Shown here piece by piece: positions 17,044 to 41,897 of a DNA stretch of 64,000 nt. A program made the position numbers and the translations under genes. The notes below the pieces were generated by a model, which was given only the letters and a program-made list of their open reading frames with translations, ran no database searches and was not told where the DNA came from. How positions within the stretch are numbered: the first letter of the stretch is position 1; every line of letters begins with the position of its first letter. Source of the DNA: an uncultured Muribaculaceae bacterium (GTDB lineage Bacteria > Cyanobacteriota > Vampirovibrionia > Gastranaerophilales > Gastranaerophilaceae); NCBI GenBank assembly GCA_964572355.1, contig CAZNEN010000002.1:61168-125167 (forward strand). The letters run 5' to 3'.

Positions 17044-18879
17044 ATGCAAATAAAACCCGAAATAAAAGAAAAAATAGTACTTGCACTCGATGTAGATACA
17101 CTGGAACAGGCAAAATCACTTATAACCGAGCTTAAAGAATACGTCGGTGTTTTTAAAGTGGGTTTGCAGCTTTATATGGGCTGCGGGTTTGAAGTTTTTA
17201 AATTTATGAAAGAGCAAAATATAAAATTCTTTTTTGATGTAAAACTTCATGATATTCCTAATACAGTGGCAAAAGCCTCTGAAAATGTAATAAGAAACGG
17301 TGCATCATTCTTTAATATTCATACAACAGGGGGAGAAGAAATGATGAGAGCGGCTCAAACGGCTGCAAGAAAAACAGCTGCAGAACTCGGAGCCGAAAAT
17401 CCCGTAATTTTGGGTGTTACTGTTCTTACAAGTATAAACGAAGACTGTTTGAAGAATGAACTTAAGATTCCTTATAAACCTGATGATTATGCGATACAGC
17501 TTGCATTAAGCGCAAAAAATGCCGGTCTGGACGGTGTTGTAGCCAGTGTTTGGGAGGCAAAGAAAATTAAGCAGGTTTGCGGTAAGAATTTTAAAGTATT
17601 ATGTCCCGGAATACGTCCCGAATGGTCGAATAAAAATGATCAAAAACGTCTTGCAACTCCGAGTATTGCCATAAAAGAAGGGGCAGACTATCTTGTTATA
17701 GGAAGGGCAGTTACAAGTGCAGAAGATAAAGTTAAAGCTATTCAAATGATATATGAAGAAATTGAAAATGCTATACTAACGCAGAATAAATCATATGCAA
17801 AATCAAAAGGTAAACTTATTCTTGAAAACGGAATGATTTTTGAAGGGGAGTCAATAGGCGCAGAAGGTATATCGTACGGAGAAATTGTTTTTAATACGTC
17901 AATGGTAGGTTATCAGGAAATTTTAACCGATCCTTCATACGCAGGTCAGACAATAGTTATGACCTACCCGGAAATAGGTAATTACGGTATAAATAAAGAT
18001 GATTTTGAAAGCGGGAAAATACACGCAAAAGGATTTATTGTTAAAAATATATGTGAACATGAATCTCACTATAAAAGCTATATATCACTTTCCGACTATT
18101 TGAAACAAAATAATATTATAGGGTTGAAGGGTATTGATACAAGATATCTTACCCAGATAATAAGAAACTACGGGGCAATGAACTGTGCTGTTACGACAGG
18201 AGATATTACTCCCGAAATTAAAGCAAAAGTGAAAGAATACAGAATAAGTAAGAATATTACGCTTGATGTAACAACATACAGAATTGAAAAATACTCAGGC
18301 AGCGGTATTAAACTTGCAGTTATTGACATGGGAATCAAAAAAAGCATTCTTGATAATTTTAAAGCTCTTAACTGTGATATAACCGTGTATCCTGCCGATG
18401 TTAAAGCTGATGAAATTCTGAATAATAATTTTGATGCCGTGTTAATATCAAATGGACCCGGTAATCCGGAAGATGCCGTTCAAGCAATTGAAACGGCAAA
18501 AAATCTACTCGGTAAAATAAGAATATTCGGTATTTGCCTGGGACATCAAATATTATCATTAGCGCTCGGGGCCGGAACATTTAAACTTAAATACGGACAC
18601 AGAGGCGGAAATCATCCCGTTATTAATTTAAAAACGAATGAGATATTTATTACTTCCCAAAATCATAGCTATGCGGTTGAAGAATCGTCACTTCCTGACT
18701 TTGTTGAAAAAACGTATATTAATCTTAACGATAATACAATAGAAGGGATTTGTTGTGACAAATATAAAATTAAGACCGTTCAATTCCATCCCGAATTAAC
18801 GGCAGGACCTTATGATGCAAATAAAATTATTACAAACTGGATAAAAGAAACGGAACAGGAAAAATTAATAATTGTATAG
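17044..18879 (+). CDS. pyrF/carA: Fusion protein: orotidine-5'-phosphate decarboxylase (N-terminal ~245 aa) + carbamoyl-phosphate synthase small (glutaminase) subunit
   Basis: N-terminal part: LALDV, FKVG, FFDVKLHDIPNT, LVIGRAV (PyrF). From about nt 17800: KLILENGMIFEGESIG..., FNTSMVGYQEILTDPSY, FGICLGHQ, VQFHPE (CarA triad). It is one uninterrupted 611-codon frame. Confidence 0.9.
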   Translation: MQIKPEIKEKIVLALDVDTLEQAKSLITELKEYVGVFKVGLQLYMGCGFEVFKFMKEQNIKFFFDVKLHDIPNTVAKASENVIRNGASFFNIHTTGGEEMMRAAQTAARKTAAELGAENPVILGVTVLTSINEDCLKNELKIPYKPDDYAIQLALSAKNAGLDGVVASVWEAKKIKQVCGKNFKVLCPGIRPEWSNKNDQKRLATPSIAIKEGADYLVIGRAVTSAEDKVKAIQMIYEEIENAILTQNKSYAKSKGKLILENGMIFEGESIGAEGISYGEIVFNTSMVGYQEILTDPSYAGQTIVMTYPEIGNYGINKDDFESGKIHAKGFIVKNICEHESHYKSYISLSDYLKQNNIIGLKGIDTRYLTQIIRNYGAMNCAVTTGDITPEIKAKVKEYRISKNITLDVTTYRIEKYSGSGIKLAVIDMGIKKSILDNFKALNCDITVYPADVKADEILNNNFDAVLISNGPGNPEDAVQAIETAKNLLGKIRIFGICLGHQILSLALGAGTFKLKYGHRGGNHPVINLKTNEIFITSQNHSYAVEESSLPDFVEKTYINLNDNTIEGICCDKYKIKTVQFHPELTAGPYDANKIITNWIKETEQEKLIIV

Positions 18880-22290: not shown

Positions 22291-23565
22291 ATGAATATTA
22301 ATGTAGAAAAATCTAAACCCTTGAGAGGAACTATTGAAATTCCCCCGGATAAATCCGTTACACATAGGGCTTTTATGTTATCAGCTCTCACTAAAGGACG
22401 GGTTAAAATTTCAAATTTTTCTAAAGGAGCGGATTGTATATCCACTTTAAATATAATTAAACAGTTAGGCTGCAATATTAAGTTTCTGAATGAAAAAGAA
22501 TTAATTGTTGATTCCTCAAATGCTCTAAAAATACCGAAAGGTGTGCTTGACTGCGGAAATTCCGGAACTACGGCAAGACTTATGATGGGAATTCTTGCCG
22601 GACAGAATTTTAACAGCAAATTAAAAGGCGACATAAGTCTTTCAAAAAGACCGATGAAAAGGGTAATTGCTCCGCTTGAATTAATGGGAGCAAATATAAT
22701 ACACAATGACTACAAATTGCCTGTTGAAATTTCAGGTACACCATTAAAGGGTATAGATTATAACTCGCCTTTAGCTTCCGCACAGGTAAAATCATGTCTG
22801 CTTCTTGCAGGTTTAAATGCGGAAGATAAAACGGTATTTTCTGAACCTTATAAATCCCGTAATCACACCGAGTTAATGTTTGAATATATGGGAGCTGATA
22901 TTAAAATAAACGGGAACACCATAGCTGTAAAAAAATCACAATTAAATCCCGTAGATATTACTGTATGCGGTGACATTTCTTCTGCGGCATTTTTTATGAC
23001 AGCGGCTCTTATTGTACCCGGTTCCGATATAATAATCAAAAATGTCGGAATTAATGAAACACGCTCCGGCATTATTGAAGTATTTAAAGCCATGAACGGA
23101 AATATAGAGATAATGAACGAAAGAACTGTTTCTAACGAAAAAGTTGCAGATTTAAGAGTAAAATATTCCGATTTGAAAGCAACAATTATTGAAGGCAGTA
23201 TTATACCAAGATTAATAGATGAAATTCCGGTTATAGCAGTTGCTGCAACTCAGGCTGAAGGAACTACCATAATAAAAGATGCTCTGGATTTAAGAAATAA
23301 AGAAGCGGATAGAATAACTTCCGTTAAAACCGAACTGTTAAAACTTGGCGCGGATATAGAAGAAATGCCGGATGGATTTATTTTAAACGGAAAATCCGAA
23401 CTTCAAGGCAATTGTGAAATTGAATGCTACCATGATCATCGTATTGCAATGAGTGCTTATATTGCAGGATTAATATGCAAAAAACCCATTAAAATTAATG
23501 AATTTCAATGGGTTAATATTTCTTTTCCGGAATTCTTAAAGTTAAATTCCGCACTTATTGCATAG
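22291..23565 (+). CDS. aroA: 3-phosphoshikimate 1-carboxyvinyltransferase (EPSP synthase)
   Basis: LRGTIEIPPDKSVTHRA, LDCGNSGTTARLMMG, LSKRPM and DHRIAMS. I chose the start at ATG 22291 (MNINVEKSKPLRG) because the 33 upstream residues of the ORF-track call have no counterpart in AroA. Confidence 0.9.
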   Translation: MNINVEKSKPLRGTIEIPPDKSVTHRAFMLSALTKGRVKISNFSKGADCISTLNIIKQLGCNIKFLNEKELIVDSSNALKIPKGVLDCGNSGTTARLMMGILAGQNFNSKLKGDISLSKRPMKRVIAPLELMGANIIHNDYKLPVEISGTPLKGIDYNSPLASAQVKSCLLLAGLNAEDKTVFSEPYKSRNHTELMFEYMGADIKINGNTIAVKKSQLNPVDITVCGDISSAAFFMTAALIVPGSDIIIKNVGINETRSGIIEVFKAMNGNIEIMNERTVSNEKVADLRVKYSDLKATIIEGSIIPRLIDEIPVIAVAATQAEGTTIIKDALDLRNKEADRITSVKTELLKLGADIEEMPDGFILNGKSELQGNCEIECYHDHRIAMSAYIAGLICKKPIKINEFQWVNISFPEFLKLNSALIA

Positions 23566-24304
23566 GATAATAAACCTTGCTTCCTCGAGCCGAATCAACA
23601 TTAAAAGCAAGAATAATTTTCTCACCTTTATAATCATCAGGCGGTACATCAAAACTGTTTATTTTAGTCAGCAATATAAGAATAGAATCATCTAAAGCTT
23701 CATTATTTGATTTTACAAGAATTTTTTTTGTATTTAATATACCTTCTTTATCAATGGTAAATACAATTCTACATTCGTCTTTACCTTTAATTCCCGAAGA
23801 ATCCCAGGCGCTTGTAAATTCTCCTCCTATTCTTACCAGATATTCTCTTAGAACAGGAGAGATTGTTCCTAACCTTTTATTTAATATTGGCAGATTTCGA
23901 TTTGGATCTTGAGATCTGAAATTAGACGGCAGTGCATTATCCCAATATGATTTTACATTTGGTAATTTTACATTTGCAATTTTCGCATTTTCTTTAACTT
24001 TTTCTATTTTCTTTTCACGGTAAGGAGGCAGAAATAAAATTATAATACTGAGAAGAATAGAAATCCCTATTGTAATTAATGCTTTTTTCTTATCAGCTCT
24101 TTCTTCTTCCTCTTCTGCCAGTTGTGCTAATTCTTCACTGGTTAATTTCCTTCTTCTTGAAGAAGTTGTTTGTTTTACTTCAACTTCTGGTTCGGGTTCA
24201 TAAAATTCTTCTTCTTCAATAATTTGTTCAAATATATCATTTCCGCATTCACAAAAATCCGGGCATTGATCATATTCTTTGTTGCATTCTGTACATCTAT
24301 ACAT
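23555..24304 (-). CDS. Zinc-ribbon / single-TM / TonB-C-terminal-like domain protein
   Basis: N-terminal CTECxxxxxxCPxFCECG zinc ribbon, an acidic linker, the TM helix ALITIGISILLSIIILFLPP, and a C-terminal ~90 aa (ECRIVFTIDKEGILNTKKILVKSNNEALDDSILILLTKINSFDVPP) resembling TonB_C. Confidence 0.6.
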   Translation of the reverse strand: MYRCTECNKEYDQCPDFCECGNDIFEQIIEEEEFYEPEPEVEVKQTTSSRRRKLTSEELAQLAEEEEERADKKKALITIGISILLSIIILFLPPYREKKIEKVKENAKIANVKLPNVKSYWDNALPSNFRSQDPNRNLPILNKRLGTISPVLREYLVRIGGEFTSAWDSSGIKGKDECRIVFTIDKEGILNTKKILVKSNNEALDDSILILLTKINSFDVPPDDYKGEKIILAFNVDSARGSKVYYPMQ

Positions 24305-24321: not shown

Positions 24322-25992
24322 TTAATATTCTTTATCTACTTTTTCCAGTAATTCTTCTCTTATTATGATTTCAAATTTAGTAATACCTAACATTGTTGTC
24401 TCCATAATAAGAATTGCAGTAGGAAGCATAGCGGCAATAAAGCTTAATACCATACCTGTTACATCACCGCCCATAACTCCTATAAAGTATGAAACGTTCA
24501 TTGTAATTTCTATAAATACAACGGCAACTGCAATTAAAAAGAATTTTTTTGCTTCTTTTTTCAGGTTTTTGCTGCTTTCTACACCGTGAAGGGTAACACC
24601 ATGGACATTATAGTCGCTGAATCCGTCCTGTTTTATAACATTCGATGCAAATATTCTTTTTGTTATTGCAAAAGATGTTGCAAAACAATGGAATGCGAAT
24701 ATAATCATTAAAGTTGCAAGTGTTAAAAATATAGGCGAAAATTTAAACCCTGCGGAAAATCTTATCCATCCTGCAGCTTCGGGGAAACATTCCGCCAGTG
24801 TTTGAGATACACCATATGCAAGAAACGGTGCCGTTATAATACCAAGAAGATATTCCCATACCGCTTTTATTTGCAGATTGAATATTTTATTATTAATATC
24901 TTTTAATTTTTTCTTGGTAATATTATTAACAAATAAAGTAATCCACTGCTGATAATCTTTTACAACAGCCTGGAAGTCTTCTCTGCTTTCATATCCGTCA
25001 AGTTCTTCTCCTGTTTCTGCAATAATATTTTTTGTAAATCCTGCAAAAACACCAAGGAAAATGCATAAGAAACTGCATAAGATTAACATCTGAGGTATTA
25101 ATACAGGCAGATTATACGTATGAATAAATAATTCCGCAACGGAGAAAATAAGAATCAACCCGAAAATACCAAATGCAGATAAAAGACACAATCTTTGTAT
25201 CAGTAAAGATGACTGAGAGAGTCTGGATTTACCTTTATTTTGAAGAATAAGAAACTGTCCTTGTTTTAAAAGCAGAGTTATAATTATAAAACATATTGAA
25301 ATTAAAAATAATATTCTTGTTTGTATTTGTACCGTAATGCCCCATATTACCGTAATATCTTTTAAAATGTAAGACATTGTCAAAGGAACAAACAATATAA
25401 ATGCATTTAAAACTCCGAGTATTATTTCATTTTGAGAAAGTTTTCCTCGTAAATAATTAGATTTATAAGCTATTTCTTTTGTAATTAAAGCTCTTCTTCT
25501 TTCAATATCCGCTTTTTTTCTTTCGATTTTTATTTTAGTTTGCGCCCCTATACCTTTTCCGTATAGTGTTTCAATATCTTGCTCATTGAGTTCTTCATCC
25601 TCAATCATGGTAATTGTTTTTTTATGTTCCGCCTGTTTTATTCTTTCCGCATTTTTTCTGTTTGCAAGCTCTAAAGAACCCGGAACTATTTTTGGATTTG
25701 TTCCTGCAGTTGTAATTTTAATGCTGATAAATTCGTCCGTATCTGCAATCATTAATTTGCAGAGTGAACCTATTGGCATGGATGCTCCTATAGGTTGTCC
25801 GCGAAAAAGTACTCGTTCACTTTTTAAATTATTAACTATCTGCCATTTTCCGTTATCTGTTTTTTGGAGTGAAATTATTAAATCAAAACTCAAATCAAGT
25901 TTGTAATGACATCCGGGAGCTGTTCCTATGTTAATTACATTAGTTTCATTAAATACTTTTTCATTATTTTTGGATGTTATGGTAACCTTCAT
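24322..25992 (-). CDS. FHA-like N-terminal domain fused to a polytopic membrane domain; function unknown
   Basis: The first ~95 aa (VINIGTAPGCHYKLDL...SLQKTDNGKWQIVNNLKSERVLFRGQPI...LMIADTDEFISI) follow the FHA beta-sandwich pattern. A K/E/R helical linker and about 8-10 hydrophobic helices follow. Confidence 0.55.
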   Translation of the reverse strand: MKVTITSKNNEKVFNETNVINIGTAPGCHYKLDLSFDLIISLQKTDNGKWQIVNNLKSERVLFRGQPIGASMPIGSLCKLMIADTDEFISIKITTAGTNPKIVPGSLELANRKNAERIKQAEHKKTITMIEDEELNEQDIETLYGKGIGAQTKIKIERKKADIERRRALITKEIAYKSNYLRGKLSQNEIILGVLNAFILFVPLTMSYILKDITVIWGITVQIQTRILFLISICFIIITLLLKQGQFLILQNKGKSRLSQSSLLIQRLCLLSAFGIFGLILIFSVAELFIHTYNLPVLIPQMLILCSFLCIFLGVFAGFTKNIIAETGEELDGYESREDFQAVVKDYQQWITLFVNNITKKKLKDINNKIFNLQIKAVWEYLLGIITAPFLAYGVSQTLAECFPEAAGWIRFSAGFKFSPIFLTLATLMIIFAFHCFATSFAITKRIFASNVIKQDGFSDYNVHGVTLHGVESSKNLKKEAKKFFLIAVAVVFIEITMNVSYFIGVMGGDVTGMVLSFIAAMLPTAILIMETTMLGITKFEIIIREELLEKVDKEY

Positions 25993-26001
25993 CTTTATCC
26001 T

Positions 26002-26670
26002 CTATCTTCCTATTGCTTGTGAAAATTTTCTGAGTGCTTGTTCAACATTTTCTTCGGAAGCAACAATTAATTTTTGTTCACTCATAACCGGAACTAAAGC
26101 TTGTCTTACATCATCGAGCTTTTGGGGATGCGCATAAAGAAAAGTTAAACTTAAATCGGGAATATATTTTAATGTATTCTGAATATTTTTTGGAAGTGTA
26201 TTCCAATTAATTTGTTTTGTGATATCTCCCTCATTTTCTAAATCTCCCAGAATAATAATTGCAGGGACATATCCGTCGGCTTTATATATAAGAGCATCAT
26301 CTACTGCCTTTTTCAAAGCCAGTCCGTATGCAGTTCCGTATGCCTTACTGTCAAATTCACTTCTTTTATTCATTGCATTTCGCATAGCAATTGTTTTGTG
26401 AGGATTACCGTTATAAATATTATATGCATCTTCTGTTACGGCATATATTAATGTGTGATCTTCAGAATCAAGTCTTTTAGCCATTTTTAATACAGTCTGC
26501 TGCTGCTGATATAGTAAATTTCTGTTTGAGGCCGATACATCGAGTAAAAATATTGCCACTACAGGCTTAAATTCTCCAAACTCTATTTTACTGACACCAA
26601 CAAGAATTAATTTTCCTATAAAAACCATCAAAGGTAAAATTATACCTAAAATTAAAGCTCTTCTAAACAT
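26002..26670 (-). CDS. Membrane-anchored von Willebrand factor A (vWA) domain protein
   Basis: N-terminal TM (ALILGIILPLMVFIGKLILVGV). MIDAS motif DVSASN (DxSxS) after a beta-strand VAIFLLD, with later T and D(L)ENEGD elements. Confidence 0.7.
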   Translation of the reverse strand: MFRRALILGIILPLMVFIGKLILVGVSKIEFGEFKPVVAIFLLDVSASNRNLLYQQQQTVLKMAKRLDSEDHTLIYAVTEDAYNIYNGNPHKTIAMRNAMNKRSEFDSKAYGTAYGLALKKAVDDALIYKADGYVPAIIILGDLENEGDITKQINWNTLPKNIQNTLKYIPDLSLTFLYAHPQKLDDVRQALVPVMSEQKLIVASEENVEQALRKFSQAIGR

Positions 26671-29773: not shown

Positions 29774-30508
29774 TTAGTCATCAACTTTTTTTACGGAATT
29801 CTTACTGTTTTTAGAAAATAAAAGACCAGCTTCAAATAATAAATATGTTGGGACAGCCAGCATAAGCTGGCTCATTACATCAGGCGGGGTCAAAATTCCT
29901 GCAACTATTAATAAGCCTACTATTATATATGACCTTTTATCAGCTACGGAATCATATGAAACAATGCCTGATCTTATTAAAGCTATTGTTATTAAAGGAA
30001 CCTGAAACATTAAACCGAATGCCAAACTCATCCATAGAGCAAGTGTTACGACATTTGAAATATTAAATACAGCCTGTATATTTTCGGTAGAAAAACTTAC
30101 TCCGAAGTTTATAATTAAAGGTAAAATAAGAAAAATACAAAAAGCGGCGCCTGTTACAAATAATAAACTTGAAATTATTACAATTGATTTTATGAATTTT
30201 CTTTCATGCTCATATAATGCGGGAAGAAGAAAATCCCAAATTTTTTTTGCTATGTAAGGAAAACATATTATAAAATCAATAACTATAGCTGTTTTAATCT
30301 GGATTAAAAAAACCTCAACCGGAGAAAAATAATTTAATGTAATTTTATTTGTTCCCAGTATTATTTTAATTAAAAAATCTAAAGCTTTCGGTGCTGCAAA
30401 GAAAGTAAACGGCAGCACTATTGCAATGGCATATAAACACTTTAAGATTGTTTCTCTTAAAGCTTCAAGATGCGAAATCAGACTCTCATTTTTATCTTCT
30501 TCACTCAT
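29774..30508 (-). CDS. tatC: Twin-arginine translocase subunit TatC
   Basis: 244 aa with six TM segments. LISHLEALRETILK N-terminus and P..ALDFL, LLFxxGxxF, TPPDV-type motifs (ILTPPDVMSQ). Confidence 0.9.
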   Translation of the reverse strand: MSEEDKNESLISHLEALRETILKCLYAIAIVLPFTFFAAPKALDFLIKIILGTNKITLNYFSPVEVFLIQIKTAIVIDFIICFPYIAKKIWDFLLPALYEHERKFIKSIVIISSLLFVTGAAFCIFLILPLIINFGVSFSTENIQAVFNISNVVTLALWMSLAFGLMFQVPLITIALIRSGIVSYDSVADKRSYIIVGLLIVAGILTPPDVMSQLMLAVPTYLLFEAGLLFSKNSKNSVKKVDD

Positions 30509-30513
30509 TTTTG

Positions 30514-30729
30514 TTATACATCGGTAGGTTTATATTCTTCAGGTTTTTCGCCCGCATCTTCTATTGCTTCTTTAATTTCATCGGCTTCTTTTTTAATGAG
30601 TTCTTTTGCTTTTTTATATTCATAAGAAGCTTTACCGAGTGCTCTTGCAAGTTCGGGTATTCTTTTCCCGCCGAACAGCAGTAGTATTACAACAAGTATA
30701 AGTGTTATTTCTGTTATTCCGAGTGACAT
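30514..30729 (-). CDS. tatA: Twin-arginine translocase subunit TatA/E
   Basis: MSLGITEITLILVVILLLFGGKRIPELARALGK is the canonical TatA TM plus the FG-G-hinge-amphipathic helix. Confidence 0.92.
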   Translation of the reverse strand: MSLGITEITLILVVILLLFGGKRIPELARALGKASYEYKKAKELIKKEADEIKEAIEDAGEKPEEYKPTDV

Positions 30730-30752
30730 TTATTTTTTCTCCTTCTAAATTA

Positions 30753-32036
30753 TTATATTACTCTTTGTTCTTTTATAGCAAATATTTCTATTGCGGAAAA
30801 ATTGCAGCTTTTCTTGCAGGCACTGCAGCCTATGCACTTTGAAGCATTAATTACGGATTTCCCTGTTTCATCTTTATAAATTGCTTTTGCCGGACATTCT
30901 AAATTGCAAATCCCGCAGCTGCTGCATTTATCAGGATTTATTACCGCCATTGCAATTCTTGTATGCTGCTTTTCTTCAAGCGAAATTCTTTTTATTGCAC
31001 CTGAAGGGCATACTTTTGAACATTCATTGCAATCATATTTACAGTAATTTTCGCCCTGTTTATAATCAATATGGACGGCTCCGAAATTATCGTTTGCTTT
31101 TGTTAATATTTTATTCGGGCATGCTTTAATGCATAAGTTACAGTTTAAGCATTTATTAAACATTCTTTGAAGATTAACGGCACCGGGCGGAAGTATTATA
31201 TCTTTAAATTTTTTAACCGTATTGCCGGCTGAAATAAGTCCGTATTTTACGGCTCCTGCAAATGCGGCTGCAGCCGAAGCGGCAATGATAAATTCTCTTC
31301 TTTTTATATTAAATTTAACCTGTTCTTTTGTTTTTATACCGTATTTAATTGCTCCTTTATAACATTTACCGAGGCACTTAAAGCATTTTATACACACTTC
31401 GTTATTAACTGTTTGCTCGGCGGAATCGATACAACCTGCGGGGCAGCTTCTTTCACAAAGAGAACAAGACATACAGCTCTCTTTTTTAATATATATTTTA
31501 AACAGAGATATCTTTGACAATAATCCCAAAATACAGCCGACAGGACAAATATCCGTACAGAATAATCTGTTTTTAAATATTGCCAGCACTCCTATAATAA
31601 CAATTGCAATAATCCCTGCCGCAGATAAAGTTAAGGCCGAGCCAAACAGAGTATAAGGGTCTGTATATCTTATAAATAATGCACTTCCTCCGATTAAAAC
31701 CCCGAATGTTAAAGCGGATATATAATATTTAAAAGGATAATTTATCCGTTTTTCATTATTTCTTTTATTCCTGATAAGGCAGATTATTTCCTGAAAAATT
31801 CCCATTGGGCAAATTAAAGAACAATATATCCTTCCGAACAAAGGAGTTATCAATATAACTGATATTAACAAAATTATAGCAATTGTCGAAAAATCAAAAA
31901 TATTTCTTTGCAAAACGGGGGTTAATTGAATATCAAATATATGAACAGGATAAAATAAACCTGCCATTGCTGCAATGGCAAGTATAAAAATAATTAAAGC
32001 TATACTTAAACGAATTATATACAATAGGTTTTTCAT
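30753..32036 (-). CDS. Fused NapH-like membrane 4Fe-4S protein + NapG-like tetra-cluster ferredoxin (polyferredoxin) with an internal twin-arginine motif
   Basis: N-terminal TM helices with GRIYCSLICPMG and NRLFCTDICPVG (NapH/MauN-type CxxxCP). Two CxxCxxCxxxCP-type motifs follow, then KRREFIIASAAAAAFAGA. After that come ILPPGA...CLNCNLCIKACP, CKYDCNECSKVCP, CSSCGICNLECP and CIGCSACKKSC (NapG-like). Confidence 0.75.
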   Translation of the reverse strand: MKNLLYIIRLSIALIIFILAIAAMAGLFYPVHIFDIQLTPVLQRNIFDFSTIAIILLISVILITPLFGRIYCSLICPMGIFQEIICLIRNKRNNEKRINYPFKYYISALTFGVLIGGSALFIRYTDPYTLFGSALTLSAAGIIAIVIIGVLAIFKNRLFCTDICPVGCILGLLSKISLFKIYIKKESCMSCSLCERSCPAGCIDSAEQTVNNEVCIKCFKCLGKCYKGAIKYGIKTKEQVKFNIKRREFIIAASAAAAFAGAVKYGLISAGNTVKKFKDIILPPGAVNLQRMFNKCLNCNLCIKACPNKILTKANDNFGAVHIDYKQGENYCKYDCNECSKVCPSGAIKRISLEEKQHTRIAMAVINPDKCSSCGICNLECPAKAIYKDETGKSVINASKCIGCSACKKSCNFSAIEIFAIKEQRVI

Positions 32037-32044
32037 ATTTATCT

Positions 32045-33286
32045 TTATCCGGCAGTATCTAAACTTTTAACGGTTGATTCGACTTTCTTTAGTAATTCGG
32101 GTATATCAAGCCCCTGTGGACAATTCTTTGAACATAGATGGCAATTAATACATTTATCTGCTCTTTCATCCTCTTTTAATGCTTTATAGTTATATACAAA
32201 CATAAATGTTTTTGAAGAAAGATTTGAACTTTTATAAATGTTGTACAATCCGAAAATTGCAGGAATATTAATTGCTTTCGGACAGACTTCCAAACAGTAT
32301 TTGCATGCCGTACAATTAATCTCACCGTGTTCCTGTATTATTTTTGCAATTTCTGCCGCTATTTTTTCTTCCTGCTGAGTAAATTCCTTAAAATTAACAA
32401 AAGTATCTATGTTTTCTTTCATCTGCTGCAAATTACTCATGCCGCTTAAAATAGTAAATACTCTGTTTTTAGAGCTTGCCCACCTCAGCCCGAAAGAGGC
32501 TTGAGTTTCATCCGGACATTCGGCTTTTAGCTTTGCAGCTGCTTTTTCCGAAAGGTTACATAATCCGCCGCCTCTTAAAGGTTCCATTACAATAACGGGA
32601 ACTCCGGCTTCATCTGCAATTTCGTATAATTCTTTAGCATTGATTACTTCCCAGTCCAGATAATTCATTTGCAGCTGGCAGAAATCCCATTTATGTTCTT
32701 TAATGACTTCACGCAGCATTTTGGGATCACCATGGAAGGAAAATCCCAGATTTTTTATTTTCCCTTCTTTTTTTAATTTTAATAATTCACCGTACATATC
32801 ATTGTTACGATAATTGTTTATTGTATTTTGATTTAAATTATGAACCATATAATTATCAAAATATTCAACCTGGCATTTTTTTAATTGTTCGTTAAAAAGT
32901 TTATGAACATCTTCTCTTGAATTTACTAAATATGCAGGATTTTTGTCGGCTAAAAAGAAACTTTCTCTGGGATATTTCTTTAATATTTCTCCTATTGCAA
33001 TTTCTGATTTTGAATCAACATACATATAAGCCGTATCAAAATAATTTGCACCGTGTGCCATTGCATATTCTACCATTTTGTCAAGTTCAACCATATCTAT
33101 TTTGCCGTCACGCATAGGAAGTCTCATACAGCCAAAACCCAGCAGCGGAATATTGAGGTTATTAAATTTTCTTGTTACAACCTGATTTTCCGCTTTTTGC
33201 ACTTCTTTTTTTCCGCAGCCTGACGTAAGCATTGCAGCTCCTCCGACAGCCATTACGGAACTTAATATAAATTCACGACGTTTCAT
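32045..33286 (-). CDS. Aldo-keto reductase fused to a C-terminal 2x[4Fe-4S] ferredoxin domain, with an N-terminal twin-arginine signal and a lipobox
   Basis: I chose the start at ATG 33286 (AAGGAGA SD 5 nt upstream): MKRREFILSSVMAVGGAAMLTSGCG = RR motif + h-region + L-T-S-G-C lipobox. AKR tetrad candidates are FDTAYMY (D, Y), LADK (K) and MVHN (H). C-terminal CTACKYCLEVCP and CINCHLCSKNCP. Confidence 0.8.
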   Translation of the reverse strand: MKRREFILSSVMAVGGAAMLTSGCGKKEVQKAENQVVTRKFNNLNIPLLGFGCMRLPMRDGKIDMVELDKMVEYAMAHGANYFDTAYMYVDSKSEIAIGEILKKYPRESFFLADKNPAYLVNSREDVHKLFNEQLKKCQVEYFDNYMVHNLNQNTINNYRNNDMYGELLKLKKEGKIKNLGFSFHGDPKMLREVIKEHKWDFCQLQMNYLDWEVINAKELYEIADEAGVPVIVMEPLRGGGLCNLSEKAAAKLKAECPDETQASFGLRWASSKNRVFTILSGMSNLQQMKENIDTFVNFKEFTQQEEKIAAEIAKIIQEHGEINCTACKYCLEVCPKAINIPAIFGLYNIYKSSNLSSKTFMFVYNYKALKEDERADKCINCHLCSKNCPQGLDIPELLKKVESTVKSLDTAG

Positions 33287-33416
33287 ATTATCTCCTTTTT
33301 GTTTATTAAATATTTTACTATCTGATAGCTGCTCTAAGTCAAGATAAGACAATCATATTAATTTATACATGAAAAGATGAAATAGAACAGTATTAGTTTA
33401 TTTTGTTGTAATATAA

Positions 33417-34412
33417 TTAAGAATTCTCAATAATTCTTTTGTGTTGATCACGCCATTGATATGAAATCTGATAATTAAGATTATTTTCAATTGCTAATTT
33501 TTTCATTAAAACCGCAAGCTGAATTATTTCATCGGTAATGCAGCCGAAAATACTGTTGGGATTATTTGCACTGTTGGATTCGCAATCAATTACAATATTT
33601 TTGACACCGGATTCAATGCATTTTTTTATGAATAATCTTATTTCGTTTTCGTCAGCATTCATGGAAAAGAAAATATATTTTACAAAAAGCATATCCGGAT
33701 ATTGTGAATAAAGTTTTATATTTTCCCAGACTTTATTAAAATTATTCTGGCGTTTGATTTTTAAATAGTTTTTTTCGCTTCCGCTGTCAGGGCTGATCTG
33801 AATGCTCATTGAACCGTCTTTAAGCCCGCTTAATATTGTTTGGGAAAATTGGATACCTGAAGAGTTTATTGCTTGACGAATATTATTCTTATGAAAAAAA
33901 TCGGCTATTTCTTCAAATTCGGAGCATATGACAGGTTCGCCTCCGCCCCAGTTTATTAAGCAGGAAGAGTTTATCATTTCATTTTTATTCATTTGTTTTA
34001 TTATCGGCAGAAGCTTGTATTTTATATCTTCGGTTTTTCTTCCTATACCGCAATAAATACAATTTGAATTGCATTTAGTGAAATGATTTATTGTAAGAAA
34101 TTTTATATTGCCTGATTTTGGAAATAAAGGAACTATCTGCTTTTGCAAAAATTTACATCCTTTACATGGAGCCAGATTAGTTTGGTTATATATCATCAGT
34201 CTGTTTATATTTTTCAAGTATTCCGAAAATTGAAATTTTTTAATCATTATCGGAAATATAAGAGGCGGTGAATATGGTACTTTTGTACAATGACAACATG
34301 TATGTACGGAAAACGGCCAGAATAAAATATCGGAATATAATTTCTCACAAAAGAATAGTTCTTTACCTGCCCATTTTTTATTAAATTTATTTATAAGAAA
34401 ATTTCTGAACAT
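33417..34412 (-). CDS. Radical SAM protein with a Cys-rich N-terminal extension; function unknown
   Basis: Canonical CNSNCIYCG (Cx3Cx2C) and a WGGGEP SAM-binding motif. The N-terminal HTCCHC...CKGC could bind a metal or an auxiliary cluster. Confidence 0.7.
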   Translation of the reverse strand: MFRNFLINKFNKKWAGKELFFCEKLYSDILFWPFSVHTCCHCTKVPYSPPLIFPIMIKKFQFSEYLKNINRLMIYNQTNLAPCKGCKFLQKQIVPLFPKSGNIKFLTINHFTKCNSNCIYCGIGRKTEDIKYKLLPIIKQMNKNEMINSSCLINWGGGEPVICSEFEEIADFFHKNNIRQAINSSGIQFSQTILSGLKDGSMSIQISPDSGSEKNYLKIKRQNNFNKVWENIKLYSQYPDMLFVKYIFFSMNADENEIRLFIKKCIESGVKNIVIDCESNSANNPNSIFGCITDEIIQLAVLMKKLAIENNLNYQISYQWRDQHKRIIENS

Positions 34413-40134: not shown

Positions 40135-40162
40135 AGGAACCCTAAAAAGTTCCTTTTTTTTT
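40135..40162 (+). terminator. Intrinsic terminator oriented for the + strand with no annotated + strand gene upstream
   Basis: AGGAAC-cctaaaaa-GTTCCT followed by a run of about 8-9 T. The T-run touches the purN::purD stop codon on the other strand. Confidence 0.5.
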
Positions 40163-41897
40163 ATGTTTTCGTTTTAAAATCTATATCTGTTCTGAAAATT
40201 TTATTTTTATAGTTTATATTATTAACTGCTTCATATACTTTAGATACCGCATTTCTGCCTGATGCGCAAACAGACAGTACTCTGCCCCCGTCAGTGTATA
40301 AATTGCCGTTTTTTTTCTTTACTCCTGCAAAGAATATTTTTACATCGGATTTGCAATTAATATTGATTTTATCACCGGCAGCCGGATTATAAGGATATCC
40401 TTCAGATGCCAGTACTATACATATTGAAGGTATATTGTTGAATTCTGTTTTTATTTTATCCAGTTTTCTCTGGACTGCTGCGATGAGAATTTCTAATAAA
40501 TCGCTTTTAAGATTCATCATTAATACCTGAGTTTCGGGATCTCCAAAGCGCATATTAAATTCCAGCACCTTTATTCCCGTTTCGGTTAAAATGAGACCGG
40601 AATATATAATACCTGTAAAATCAGCTTTTTCTTTAATTAATGCATTTTTTAATAAGGTTAAATATTCTTTAATCTTAGTTTTATTAATGTTAACCGGGCA
40701 TATTGCGCCCATTCCTCCCGTATTGGGACCTTCATTATTTTCTTTAAGTTTTTTGTAGTCTTTTGCGACCGAAAGAGGCAGGAGTGTTTTGCCATCCCAA
40801 AAGCAAATAAGTGAGAATTCTCTTCCTTGCAGGAATTCTTCAATTACTATTTTTTTTGAAGCTTCTTTGAATTTGCCGTCCAAATAGTCTTTGATTATTT
40901 TTTTTGTATTTTCTTTATTATTTGCAATGCAGACTCCTTTACCTGCCGCAAGACCGTCAGCTTTTATTACAAACGGAAATTTATACGGAATATTTTTTAT
41001 ATCTTCATATTTTTCAATAATTATATAATCTGCTGTAGGAATATTATTTCTTTGCATAAATTTTTTTGCAAAAGATTTAGAGCTTTCAAGTTGTGTCCAA
41101 TATTTGTTTGCGCCTATACATGGTATTCCCGCATTTGAGAATATATCTGTAATGCCGTCAGCAAGCGGTTGTTCCGGACCTATGAGAACTAAATTTATAT
41201 TTTTTTCTTTTGATTTTTCCGCAAGTTCCTTATAGTTTTCGGCGTATATTATTTCTCCGAGATTTTTAAATCCGTCGTTTGATCCGAATAGGTATAATTT
41301 ATTTAATAGTTTCGATTGTAATAATTTATCGGCCAGAGCATGTTCTCTGGCACCTGAACCTATTAAAAGAACATTATATTGTTTAATAAGTTTTTCAATT
41401 GTTCGGGGCAGAAGTTTATGTTCGGCTTTGTGTATTTCTCTTTCGAGTTCTTTAAGTGTCATGTCTGGATTTATTTTAACTGTTTTCTGTGCTATTATTT
41501 CGCCCGAATCAACTTCTTTTGAAACATAGTGAACGGTTACCCCCGTTTTTTTAACTTTTGCGTTAAATGCTCTTTCTATTGCATTTTTCCCTTTAAATTC
41601 GGGTAATAGCGACGGATGTATATTTATAAATTTCCCCTCCTTAAGCATATCTTCAGAAAGAATACGCATATATCCCGCCAGAACTATTAAATCAAATTTG
41701 TTTTTTTGTAAAAAAGCTAACGTATTTTCATATTTAATGCAAAAAGATTTTATCCCGAGCCGCTTTGCCCTTTTTAATACATAAGCATTGTAATTATCAG
41801 ATACACAGGTAAATTCTATCGAACTGTTTTTAAAATAATTAATAACAGCTTCAAAATTAGAACCGCTGCCTGAAGCAAATATTGCAATTTTTGTCAT
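40161..41897 (-). CDS. purN/purD: Fusion protein: phosphoribosylglycinamide formyltransferase (PurN, N-terminal ~180 aa) + phosphoribosylamine-glycine ligase (PurD)
   Basis: PurN: IAIFASGSGSNFEAV, NIHPSLLPEFKG, VHYVSKEVDSGEII. PurD from about nt 41380: VLLIGSGAREHALADKL, GPNTGGMGA, EFNMRFGDPETQ. It is a single 578-codon frame. Confidence 0.9.
   Translation of the reverse strand: MTKIAIFASGSGSNFEAVINYFKNSSIEFTCVSDNYNAYVLKRAKRLGIKSFCIKYENTLAFLQKNKFDLIVLAGYMRILSEDMLKEGKFINIHPSLLPEFKGKNAIERAFNAKVKKTGVTVHYVSKEVDSGEIIAQKTVKINPDMTLKELEREIHKAEHKLLPRTIEKLIKQYNVLLIGSGAREHALADKLLQSKLLNKLYLFGSNDGFKNLGEIIYAENYKELAEKSKEKNINLVLIGPEQPLADGITDIFSNAGIPCIGANKYWTQLESSKSFAKKFMQRNNIPTADYIIIEKYEDIKNIPYKFPFVIKADGLAAGKGVCIANNKENTKKIIKDYLDGKFKEASKKIVIEEFLQGREFSLICFWDGKTLLPLSVAKDYKKLKENNEGPNTGGMGAICPVNINKTKIKEYLTLLKNALIKEKADFTGIIYSGLILTETGIKVLEFNMRFGDPETQVLMMNLKSDLLEILIAAVQRKLDKIKTEFNNIPSICIVLASEGYPYNPAAGDKININCKSDVKIFFAGVKKKNGNLYTDGGRVLSVCASGRNAVSKVYEAVNNINYKNKIFRTDIDFKTKT

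Follow-up and report, generated by a model that had tools for sequence, protein, structure and literature searches.

Aldo-keto reductase (AKR) enzymes that use the nickel-pincer cofactor NPMN are established through NphT (PDB 9YEB), in which His144 coordinates Ni and Lys200 tethers the cofactor covalently (Semersky et al., Nat Chem 2026, PMC13524815). The locus considered here lies in a 64-kb stretch of DNA (the window) from the genome of a gut Melainabacterium of the order Gastranaerophilales, and its first protein, G1, shares with NphT the AKR barrel, the same catalytic tetrad, an S/T-x-His motif where strand beta-5 ends and a hydrophobic stacking position at beta-7, with sugars as plausible substrates. 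The setting is also NphT-like, as G1 orthologues occur in larB/larC/larE neighborhoods without a LarA-sized gene. However, G1 is only ~20-25% identical to NphT, has Glu in place of Lys200, and the lar genes lie outside the window. G1 also carries a predicted Tat signal that ends in a lipobox and, at its C-terminus, a 2x[4Fe-4S] domain; it has a partner, a membrane polyferredoxin, and is expected to do net redox, whereas NphT catalyzes a redox-neutral disproportionation.

The partner, G2, most resembles the polytopic polyferredoxin (PFD) Q1NSB0 of delta-proteobacterium MLMS-1, from a dual Sec/Tat-targeted family that was studied experimentally and found to be Tat-dependent (Tooke et al., eLife 2017, PMC5449189). 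Both join a NapH-like four-helix module to a NapG-like four-cluster domain, and both have RR directly before a weakly hydrophobic TMD5 with positive charges after it. Two cytoplasmic clusters are predicted in G2 and three in Q1NSB0, and no redox partner was assigned to the PFD of that study, whereas G2 has a conserved AKR-ferredoxin (AKR-Fd) partner and tatAC in its operon. NapGH and NosGH, from nitrate and N2O reductase systems, consist of the same two blocks and feed a Tat-exported periplasmic redox enzyme, but in G2 the blocks are fused in one chain, the terminal enzyme would be an AKR, and NapA/B/C, NosZ and cytochromes c are absent from the window. Uncharacterized cytoplasmic AKR-Fd fusions (COG1453-type) share with G1 the two-domain architecture (35-47% identity), the invariant tetrad, S-x-H, M-E-P and eight Cys, but have no signal peptide and no PFD or tat neighbors, and lar genes adjoin them at 1/80 sampled loci. 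Glucose-fructose oxidoreductase of Zymomonas mobilis is, as proposed for G1, a Tat-exported sugar oxidoreductase with a non-dissociating hydride cofactor; unlike G1, it has a Rossmann fold, bound NADP and no Fe-S clusters, and is a soluble, redox-neutral ping-pong enzyme with no membrane partner.

Gene order and conservation

Four tightly packed ORFs encode G1, G2, TatA and TatC (Table 1), and the ORF list confirms exactly the gaps of 8, 23 and 5 nt that had been claimed for them. The mechanical G1 ORF extends to a TTG at 33352; since a convincing ribosome-binding site, AAGGAG, precedes the ATG at 33286 with a 5-nt spacer, MKRREFILSSVMAVGGAAMLTSGC is the likely N-terminus. A TTGACT-type promoter had been suggested upstream. 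The hexamer is there, and its best -10 element, TAAAAT (33312-33317), is 19 nt away, but a consensus promoter scan, whose 27 sites compare with a chance expectation of 26.8, did not list it, so this candidate is no better than chance and is not supported.

Table 1. Features of the locus, with positions in the window
Feature	Position	Strand	Description
leader	33287..33342	-	RBS AAGGAG 33292-33297; TTGACT 33337-33342
G1	32045..33286	-	413 aa counted from ATG; AKR barrel + C-terminal 2x[4Fe-4S]; predicted Tat-exported lipoprotein precursor
twin-arginine signal + lipobox	33215..33286	-	MKRREFILSSVMAVGGAAMLTSG|C24; RR consensus and lipobox pattern matched
AKR barrel	32360..33142	-	tetrad D84/Y89/K115/H149; Pfam envelope residues 49-309
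His185 codon	32732..32734	-	S183-F-H185 motif, end of strand beta-5; equivalent of Ni-coordinating NphT His144
Glu235 codon	32582..32584	-	M234-E235-P236 after strand beta-7; position of NphT Lys200
2x[4Fe-4S] domain	32117..32314	-	two CxxCxxCxxxCP motifs: Cys325/328/331/335, Cys379/382/385/389
G2	30753..32036	-	427 aa; NapH-like four-helix module fused to NapG-like four-cluster domain
NapH-like module	31359..32036	-	TM1-4, CX3CP C72 and C160, cytoplasmic CxxCxxCxxxC 188-198 and 215-225; hydropathy and motif scan
internal Tat motif	31233..31304	-	K245-R246-R247-E-F-I-I, then weakly hydrophobic TMD5 (residues 250-268), lysines downstream
NapG-like domain	30804..31151	-	four [4Fe-4S] motifs 296-306, 332-343, 371-381, 401-411; predicted outward-facing
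tatA	30514..30729	-	71 aa; Pfam TatA_B_E 6e-16
tatC	29774..30508	-	244 aa; Pfam TatC 1.4e-56

The last two genes encode the Tat translocase, as originally proposed: in addition to the Pfam matches, TatC exceeds the TIGR00945 cutoff (170.9 vs 132.7 bits), with TatA at 52.9 bits against 53.9 for TIGR01411. Among 64 Gastranaerophilales loci having enough sequence, the order AKR-Fd, PFD, tatA, tatC is retained in 55, with the PFD gene directly after the G1-type gene in 55/64; because the order is kept while the flanks differ, the four genes are supported as one functional module. Five distant lineages (L081/85, L083, L087, L089, L094) also have a PFD next to a Tat-type AKR-Fd, and in two of them (L083, L089) tatA(C) is again within the operon. 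Cytoplasmic AKR-Fd relatives almost never have PFD or tat neighbors, and at 80 control loci of mostly cytoplasmic AKR-Fd a PFD was found once and lar genes once. Values of dN/dS are 0.049 for G1 against its closest relative, 0.03 for tatA and 0.045 for tatC, and the cassette is under purifying selection in the lar-unlinked lineage (0.03-0.10 at dS 0.7-0.95).

Predicted export signals of G1 and G2

The 24-residue extension of G1, with KRREF and L-x-G-C, had been read as a twin-arginine signal ending in a lipobox. It matches the RR consensus and a PROSITE-style lipobox pattern, and both elements are retained in 110/120 close homologues (65-92% identity); RR is retained in 102/117 distant Tat-type homologues. 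The feature does not extend across AKR-Fd proteins at large, as the RR pattern occurs within the first 40 residues of only 13 of the best 150 50%-identity representatives, in one of them inside a long N-terminal extension; P0189, whose RR signal was seen by eye, is additional to these. Most representatives without the pattern begin directly at the AKR barrel with no N-terminal extension. That most relatives are cytoplasmic would fit a non-functional RR/lipobox, with G1 a cytoplasmic Fe-S AKR and its adjacency to tatAC coincidental. This is highly improbable given the retention of KRREF and L-x-G-C among close homologues and of RR among distant ones, the co-operonic tatA(C) in two distant lineages, and a partner PFD that itself needs Tat. 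Export of G1 via Tat and its lipid anchoring are accordingly the presumed fate of the protein, judging from its sequence and that of its homologues.

G2 has two Fer4_5 (CX3CP) motifs and several Fer4 matches in Pfam, NapH-like and then NapG-like. CX3CP occurs twice in its sequence, CxxCxxCxxxC twice ahead of residue 226, and another four cluster motifs come after residue 296, which agrees with the predicted joining of a NapH-like module with two clusters to a NapG-like four-cluster domain. NCBIfam scores point the same way but lie far below the equivalog cutoffs (NapH 82.8 bits vs 234; NapG 45.5 vs 269; NapH/MauN, 78.4 bits, likewise sub-cutoff). TMD5 has a Kyte-Doolittle value of 1.68 vs 2.6-2.8 for TM1, TM2 and TM4, and the internal RR is retained in 68/69 PFD orthologues. 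In sequence it shows every hallmark of the proteins whose Tat dependence was established by experiment, and by these features G2 is a member of the known dual Sec/Tat PFD family (PMC5449189). The original prediction knew of no description of such a system; the NapH::NapG fusion is not new, but the combination of an exported AKR of nickel-pincer type with an Fe-S connection to the membrane was not found described. The prediction had also missed the internal KRREF motif of G2.

Probable cofactor of the putatively exported AKR

G1 matches Aldo_ket_red (7e-41) and a dicluster Fer4 domain (Fer4_9/Fer4_17/Fer4_8) in Pfam, its AF2 model has a pLDDT of 93, and the top Foldseek matches are canonical AKRs. 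The fusion and the intact D-Y-K-H tetrad were thus correctly recognized; the tetrad columns are invariant across the family, as are all eight cluster Cys, and the tetrad aligns residue for residue with NphT D47/Y52/K75/H106. A MAFFT alignment with 9YEB residues 8-227 pairs T142 with S183 and H144 with H185. His185 does not vary within the Tat-type set and occurs in 135/137 representatives lacking the RR pattern, and Glu235 is invariant as Glu in the family. Because cytoplasmic AKR-Fd proteins, few of which are lar-linked, also keep S-x-H and M-E-P almost without exception, the His is a family trait and no proof of Ni binding.

Where a locus continues for 4 kb or more past tatC, lar genes occur in that flank in 49 of 53 cases, in the order larB-larC-cbiM-larE, the pathway that makes the nickel-pincer nucleotide; at L007 these are larB (285.6 bits; cutoff 175), larC1 (198; 90), cbiM and larE (261; 150), with no LarA-sized protein in the inspected locus. 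LarC in Gastranaerophilales is LarC1 only, a point against the cofactor assignment. At L083 and L089, larC/larE and tatA(C) are placed inside the operon, with the PFD gene on one side and the AKR-Fd gene(s) on the other, and cbiMQO follows at L083. AKR2 of L131, an NphT-like His+Lys AKR adjoining larEBC, also bears a 2x[4Fe-4S] tail. An 84%-identical relative still has lar genes downstream, behind a ~4 kb insertion. However, larB, larC, larE and cbiM are absent from the 64-kb window, and the syntenic relative L171 (92% identical) likewise has none of them within 10 kb, so the cofactor assignment here rests on orthology.

The original prediction stressed that an exported AKR would lack NAD(P)H. 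A nickel-pincer nucleotide cofactor, which it could not foresee with the lar genes lying beyond the window, most likely resolves this paradox, as suggested by the lar linkage and His185. The genes for making this cofactor, present in the operon of most relatives, would explain how such an enzyme can function extracytoplasmically with no NAD(P)H at hand. In an unlikely alternative with the same exported architecture, the barrel contains NAD(P)(H) bound so tightly that Tat exports it with the protein, or no nicotinamide-type cofactor, and the relatives' lar genes serve another client. The periplasmic glucose-fructose oxidoreductase of Zymomonas shows that Tat can export an enzyme loaded with NADP, and the intact tetrad, the missing tethering Lys and the absence of lar genes in the window and at L171 fit this reading, as does the SGMS...Q..EN helix after strand beta-8, which resembles that of dinucleotide-binding AKRs and may fit NAD(P) or an adenine-dinucleotide form of the pincer. 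It is disfavored by the contrast in lar linkage with the 80 control loci (49/53 vs 1/80) and the missing LarA-sized protein, by larC and larE lying between the PFD and tat/AKR-Fd genes at L083 and L089, and by His185 at the Ni-ligand position; moreover, one-electron Fe-S clusters would probably not readily recycle a bound NAD(P) without a flavin.

Proposed electron path

Altogether, the preferred interpretation, favored with moderate confidence, is that the operon supplies a redox module, complete in itself and built on a nickel-pincer-type AKR, at the external surface of the cytoplasmic membrane, as well as the machinery to export it. G1 would fold in the cytoplasm and there acquire two [4Fe-4S] clusters and, in its barrel, most likely NPN/NPMN, with His185 ligating Ni and the pincer nucleotide bound non-covalently because Glu235 replaces the tethering Lys. 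TatAC would recognize KRREFIL and export the folded holo-protein, which would then be lipidated at Cys24. Sec would insert the four NapH-like helices of G2, and the internal RR with the weakly hydrophobic fifth helix would direct the folded four-cluster domain across the membrane by Tat. Outside, hydride could pass between a sugar-type alcohol/carbonyl and C4 of the pincer nucleotide via the tetrad, coupled through one-electron steps to the two G1 clusters, then, by a presumed G1-G2 contact, to the four outer G2 clusters and the NapH-like module, and from there to membrane quinone or cytoplasmic clusters. A substrate outside the cytoplasm would thereby undergo net oxidation or reduction with no free NAD(P)H involved.

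For the coupling step only, a less likely but plausible rival is that the PFD is no quinol dehydrogenase but a transmembrane conduit, carrying electrons from low-potential cytoplasmic donors (ferredoxin, hydrogenase) via its two cytoplasmic clusters to the outer clusters and AKR-Fd; the module would then be a reductase that acts outside the cytoplasm and is driven by ferredoxin. In favor of this, a fermentative metabolism is described for gut Melainabacteria, and simple aldehyde/alcohol couples demand a stronger reductant than menaquinol. G2 retains its pair of cytoplasmic [4Fe-4S] motifs along with both CX3CP, which suits such a conduit, as does the absence of quinone-biosynthesis or other respiratory genes from the 64-kb window, where, as originally noted, neither NapA, NapB nor any other known terminal reductase was found. 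On the other hand, no redox cofactor is known inside NapH-type helices, NapH is the best, though sub-threshold, family match of G2, and the only characterized relatives, NapGH and NosGH, are treated as quinol dehydrogenases (PMC5449189). An electron-sink (reductase) role is slightly favored. The original idea that Tat largely serves this module is plausible and may hold, the analysis covering 64 kb of the genome; additional RR-signal flavoproteins occur in the same operon of relatives.

Components of the cassette

The cassette consists of four minus-strand open reading frames separated by gaps of 8, 23, and 5 nt (see the table of features), with AAGGAG 5 nt before the ATG of G1, in a window of about 31% G+C. 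This layout agrees with the original prediction, which had also proposed a TTGACT-type promoter upstream of G1. That sequence exists, but its best -10 candidate is at a distance of 19 nt, and the region holds promoter-like sites at chance frequency (27 found vs. 26.8 expected in the promoter scan), leaving the promoter unsupported. Because both promoter and terminator scans were at chance level, no claim about transcription signals is made beyond the tight gene spacing.

G1 (AKR-Fd) encodes an aldo-keto reductase (AKR) barrel (Aldo_ket_red, PF00248; Pfam score 140.6 bits vs. a cutoff of 24, 7e-41) fused to a dicluster ferredoxin tail recognized by Pfam and NCBIfam. The catalytic Asp-Tyr-Lys-His tetrad is present (D84, Y89, K115, H149), its Asp, Tyr, and His being invariant in the family and its Lys nearly so; profiles and residue alignment together bear out the tetrad-bearing barrel fused to 2x[4Fe-4S] that had been read from the sequence. 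For mature G1, AF2 gave a confident model (pLDDT 93), and canonical AKRs are among its closest Foldseek matches (target-normalised TM 0.72-0.83, barrel region only). No solved structure spanning the AKR and Fe-S fusion was found in the PDB with Foldseek, whose PDB library predates the release of 9YEB. The twin-arginine signal ending in a lipobox that had been proposed for G1 was recovered by regular-expression tests for Z-R-R-x-Phi-Phi, an uncharged h-region, and a [LVI..][AST..][GAS]C lipobox within the first 35 residues: K-R-R-E-F-I-L is followed by 17 uncharged residues and L-T-S-G-C24. A KRR[ED]F motif and an L-x-G-C lipobox are both kept in 110 of 120 close homologues (65-92% identity), which come from Gastranaerophilales (Melainabacteria) gut MAGs.

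G2 had been described as a NapH-like module joined to a NapG-like ferredoxin. The architecture stands, with two Fer4_5 (CX3CP) modules, several Fer4 motifs, and a Fer4 x4 match for the C-terminal part (Pfam), but the fusion is not new, its matches miss the equivalog cutoffs for NapH (82.8 vs. 234 bits), NapH/MauN (78.4 vs. 213), and NapG (45.5 vs. 269), and an internal RR motif had been overlooked. By architecture, G2 is a predicted member of the dual Sec/Tat polyferredoxin family PFD, described as a NapH-NapG fusion, in which reporters fused after TMD5 cross the membrane Tat-dependently (Tooke et al., PMC5449189). Dependence on both translocases was demonstrated for the MLMS-1 protein only, and no partner was assigned to PFD (PMC5449189). 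The features that define the family are an even number of helices, an RR motif before a further helix that is weakly hydrophobic and accompanied by positive charges, and four [4Fe-4S] motifs, all of which are found in G2. TM1-4 are strongly hydrophobic, with CX3CP after TM2 (residue 72) and TM4 (residue 160), and two CxxCxxCxxxC motifs are predicted on the cytoplasmic side. K245-R246-R247-E-F-I-I directly precedes TMD5 (250-268), whose Kyte-Doolittle value is 1.68 vs. 2.59-2.79 for TM1, TM2, and TM4; positive charges lie at and after it (Lys264, K274-K275-x-K277), followed by cluster motifs at residues 296, 332/336, 371, and 401. Of 69 PFD orthologues, 68 share the internal RR. A true nap or nos system was rejected, the NapH and NapG scores being sub-threshold and the partner genes absent; the expected lack of NapA and NapB was confirmed, with none of napA/B/C in the window. 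No nap, nos, respiratory, quinone, or lar genes were found in the 64 kb, the rest of which holds ordinary chromosomal housekeeping genes.

The last two genes are the Tat translocase, as had been supposed: TatC scores above its equivalog cutoff (TIGR00945, 170.9 vs. 132.7 bits), and TatA above its Pfam cutoff (57.8 vs. 21) and marginally under TIGR01411 (52.9 vs. 53.9). G1 has the only convincing N-terminal RR signal in the window, to which G2 adds its internal RR, and the other RR candidates in 1.1 Mb of related loci, a sample biased to this locus, are flavoproteins of the same operon. On these signal counts, dedication of Tat to this module is plausible.

Conservation and the putatively exported subfamily

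Of the related loci, 64 extend far enough downstream, and 55 of these have the order AKR-Fd, PFD, tatA, tatC. Scanning genome contigs with a single-protein query returned almost exclusively Gastranaerophilales-type MAGs, a few of them under other taxon labels, and the wider taxonomic spread was taken from metagenome contigs. The window's flanking genes (radical SAM, TrkAH, TPR) are common to its closest relatives only. Against the syntenic, 92%-identical relative L171, dN/dS is 0.049 for G1, 0.10 for G2, 0.03 for tatA, and 0.045 for tatC (dS 0.7-0.95). Given the gene order kept with differing flanks and the low dN/dS, the four genes are a selected unit.

Searching the 50%-identity representatives exhaustively gave 9874 relatives. 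About 13 of the top 150 have an RR signal, in many cases together with a lipobox, and most RR-less members are 370-380 aa long and start straight at the barrel. Within this large family the Tat type forms a distinct minority, and a profile built from RR-bearing members retrieved many more of it. The linkage to PFD and tatAC for which homologues were to be surveyed extends to distant loci: PFD, larC, larE, tatA, tatC, AKR-Fd, a 77-aa gene, and cbiM/Q/O in L083/L084, and PFD, larC, larE, tatA, and two AKR-Fd in L089. Others read PFD and two tandem Tat-AKR-Fd (L081, L085, L086) or PFD and AKR-Fd (L087, L094). In a control of 80 metagenome loci (1.03 Mb) of mostly cytoplasmic AKR-Fd, PFD occurs once, beside an RR-type member, and lar genes occur once, so the PFD, tat, and lar linkage is specific to the exported subfamily. 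No characterised member was found in the literature on COG1453 or on AKRs with twin-arginine signals.

Several variants were seen. On five MAG contigs (L013, L028, L053, L058, L077), AKR-Fd adjoins lar genes, and PFD and/or tat are missing or truncated, which may reflect deletions or assembly artefacts. Many Gastranaerophilales operons add a flavodoxin-like protein with predicted export (see the table), which in 40 of 80 loci is a Flavodoxin_4 protein with a hydrophobic N-terminus, encoded upstream of AKR-Fd, and in others belongs to the FMN_red family and bears an RR signal and lipobox itself; no such protein is encoded in the window. Three RR/lipobox AKR-Fd representatives (P0122, P0126, P0167) have 'GFSGPG' instead of 'GFSFHG', lacking the Ni-ligand His discussed below, and their beta-1 and beta-7 motifs differ as well; these may be paralogues that are non-catalytic or have been re-purposed.

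lar genes and the predicted cofactor

Gastranaerophilales loci continue after tatC with larB (285.6 bits, cutoff 175), larC1 (198 bits), cbiM, and larE (261 bits), and lar genes flank 49 of 53 loci with at least 4 kb after tatC. No LarA-sized protein is present in the locus inspected for it (L007). Between PFD and tatA, the distant loci L083 and L089 encode a bona fide LarC (196.6 bits, cutoff 90; LarC2 140, cutoff 50) and LarE (247-253 bits, cutoff 150). The LarC of these distant lineages is full length; that of Gastranaerophilales is a 247-aa LarC1-only protein, with no LarC2 (CTP-binding) domain in about 55 loci.

AKR-fold enzymes can use nickel-pincer mononucleotide, as in NphT (PDB 9YEB), which keeps the AKR tetrad and binds the cofactor through His144 as Ni ligand and Lys200 as thioamide; among 427 AKR genes co-occurring with larBCE, 40% have the His without the Lys (PMC13524815). 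This was the only paper in the literature searched to join nickel pincers and AKRs; its text has no mention of Tat, periplasm, signal peptide, ferredoxin, iron-sulfur, or fusion, and 'nickel-pincer' together with 'twin-arginine' was not found. The traits sought in an NphT-type enzyme are a Ni-ligand His at the end of beta-5, a thioamide Lys, larB/larC/larE without larA, and a pincer bound in a capped cavity excluding the AMP moiety. Residues 8-227 of 9YEB, recovered from its alignment as top match (3.9e-23) of the second AKR beside larEBC in L131, were compared with G1 using MAFFT. The NphT tetrad (D47, Y52, K75, H106) aligns with that of G1, T142-G-H144 lies opposite the invariant S183-F-H185 (T142 with S183, H144 with H185), and I199 and K200 correspond to M234 and E235, the Glu being invariant in the family. 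G1 is, on this alignment, a protein with the predicted Ni-ligand His and without the tethering Lys. Across 137 representatives that lack the RR pattern, the S-x-H and M-E-P motifs are likewise nearly invariant, making the His a family trait. The gene context argues for a nickel-pincer nucleotide rather than NAD(P)(H) as the putative hydride cofactor of G1.

A human-gut metagenome contig (L131) encodes larE-larB-larC, a signal-less His/Glu AKR-Fd, and then a signal-less 341-aa AKR with the NphT His and Lys motif, 9YEB as best PDB match, and two CxxCxxCxxxCP motifs at its end. This last protein would be a cytoplasmic, Fe-S-fused NphT-type enzyme, and from the signal-less pair beside larEBC, Fe-S-fused nickel-type AKRs probably exist beyond the exported subfamily.

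In the window and L171, tatC is followed by TrkA/TrkH, and lar genes are absent from the window and from within reach in L171. In L172 (84% identical), an insertion of about 4 kb separates tatC from larB, larC1, and cbiM, and insertions of 1-2.5 kb occur at the tatC/larB junction in several other loci. The junction appears to be a hot spot for insertions. In the window's lineage, the lar block has thus become separated from the cassette step by step. That the cassette decayed once this linkage was lost was rejected at dN/dS of 0.03-0.10, and strong purifying selection on G1 points to a cofactor supply that probably remains in another part of the genome. When lar genes were sought beyond the window, one of its end genes was on record on a 1.9-kb contig only, and the other had no record. 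The L172 insertion contains RhuM, HTH regulators, DUF6613, HicA/HicB, and pilin-like genes. In several genomes the tatC/larB junction holds a conserved 352-368-aa protein without Pfam match, sometimes beside a CheR-like methyltransferase, and a 91-aa fragment of it is found in L069.

Proposed redox module and neighbouring genes

In the best-supported reading, G1 would receive its Fe-S clusters in the cytoplasm along with a nickel-pincer nucleotide, whose binding is expected to be non-covalent in view of Glu235, G1 would be exported by Tat and then lipidated, G2 would be inserted via Sec/Tat, and hydride chemistry at the pincer cofactor would be coupled via the Fe-S wire to the NapH-like module. 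The cofactor identity, the contact between the partners, and the coupling are what we infer. Comparative genomics supports the extracytoplasmic, membrane-wired AKR system with its own Tat genes that had been proposed; the premise concerning NAD(P)H is replaced by a putative nickel-pincer nucleotide (lar linkage, His185). GFO/IDH/MocA dehydrogenases, GH42, pectate-lyase-like proteins, and mannitol dehydrogenase near the loci of other lineages point to sugars as likely substrates, as for NphT. Aldose oxidation would be thermodynamically favoured with menaquinone, and carbonyl reduction, as an electron sink, is feasible with low-potential cytoplasmic donors; nothing usable on quinones in Gastranaerophilales was found in the literature.

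To our knowledge, nickel-pincer nucleotide enzymes were previously cytoplasmic racemases and epimerases only. A redox-neutral AKR hydride shuttle and ornithine cyclodeaminase were added in 2026. Relative to NphT, an NphT-like AKR is joined here to Fe-S clusters, a membrane polyferredoxin, and Tat, with larBCE and a nickel-uptake component in most relatives; the assembly of G1, PFD, tatAC, and lar as a whole was not found described. We tentatively entertain, at clearly less than even odds, that no nickel-pincer enzyme before G1 was extracytoplasmic and that in none before it was the pincer wired to Fe-S clusters. The cofactor in its AKR barrel would then do the usual job of a flavin, hydride/one-electron transduction, with eight or more clusters leading to or from the membrane (two in G1, four outer and two inner in the Sec/Tat polyferredoxin), and small genomes would keep tatAC essentially to assemble one module. 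Nickel-pincer chemistry would reach net, electron-transfer-coupled redox catalysis outside the cytoplasm, the orphan PFD family would gain its first candidate physiological partner, and the Tat signal on an AKR would be explained. External sugars or carbonyls may then serve an unrecognised, respiratory-type electron sink or source in gut Melainabacteria, and likewise in other anaerobes of gut and rumen that are regarded as pure fermenters. The same Ni-ligand His position raises the question of nickel use by the large uncharacterised cytoplasmic AKR-ferredoxin family.

Features of the window and of related loci
Feature	Locus	Positions	Strand	Remark
G1 (AKR-Fd)	window	32045-33286	minus	ORF
G2 (PFD)	window	30753-32036	minus	ORF
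tatA	window	30514-30729	minus	ORF
tatC	window	29774-30508	minus	ORF
TTGACT	window	33337-33342		
Radical-SAM gene	window	33417-34412	minus	directly upstream of G1; weak MoaA/SPASM-type matches
PyrF-CarA fusion	window	17044-18879	plus	OMP decarboxylase + carbamoyl-phosphate synthase small chain
PurN-PurD fusion	window	40161-41897	minus	formyltransferase + GAR synthetase
222-aa protein	window	26002-26670	minus	N-terminus MFRRALILG
556-aa protein	window	24322-25992	minus	no Pfam matches
TonB_2 protein	window	23555-24304	minus	C-terminal TonB_2 domain
NifX-like gene	L171	3327-5007		interval that includes the gene; gene product 125 aa; PF02579, Nitro_FeMo-Co
larEBC and two AKRs	L131	6894-13478		
LarC1-only LarC	L007	12158-12901		equivalent positions in about 55 loci
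Flavodoxin-like protein	L007	7414-7986		
Flavodoxin-like protein	L018	14644-15381		
Flavodoxin-like protein	L077	2746-3396		
tatC/larB insertion	L172	13554-17524		
352-368-aa protein	L008	12366-13448		
352-368-aa protein	L019	11513-12610		
352-368-aa protein	L030	12277-13335		
352-368-aa protein	L031	4783-5856		
352-368-aa protein	L047	11158-12225		
352-368-aa protein	L048	5763-6869		

The radical-SAM gene was rejected as a module member, being conserved in the two closest relatives (L001, L171) only. In L171, the NifX-like gene, absent from the window, lies between the radical-SAM and AKR-Fd genes; a link of these upstream genes to cofactor handling is possible. Elsewhere in the window, two fusions of nucleotide-synthesis enzymes were seen (PyrF-CarA, PurN-PurD). 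Downstream of TrkAH lie the 222-aa protein, in which the RR is followed by a membrane-anchor-like helix and is not convincing as a Tat signal, the 556-aa protein, and the TonB_2 protein, a trio that is syntenic in L171.
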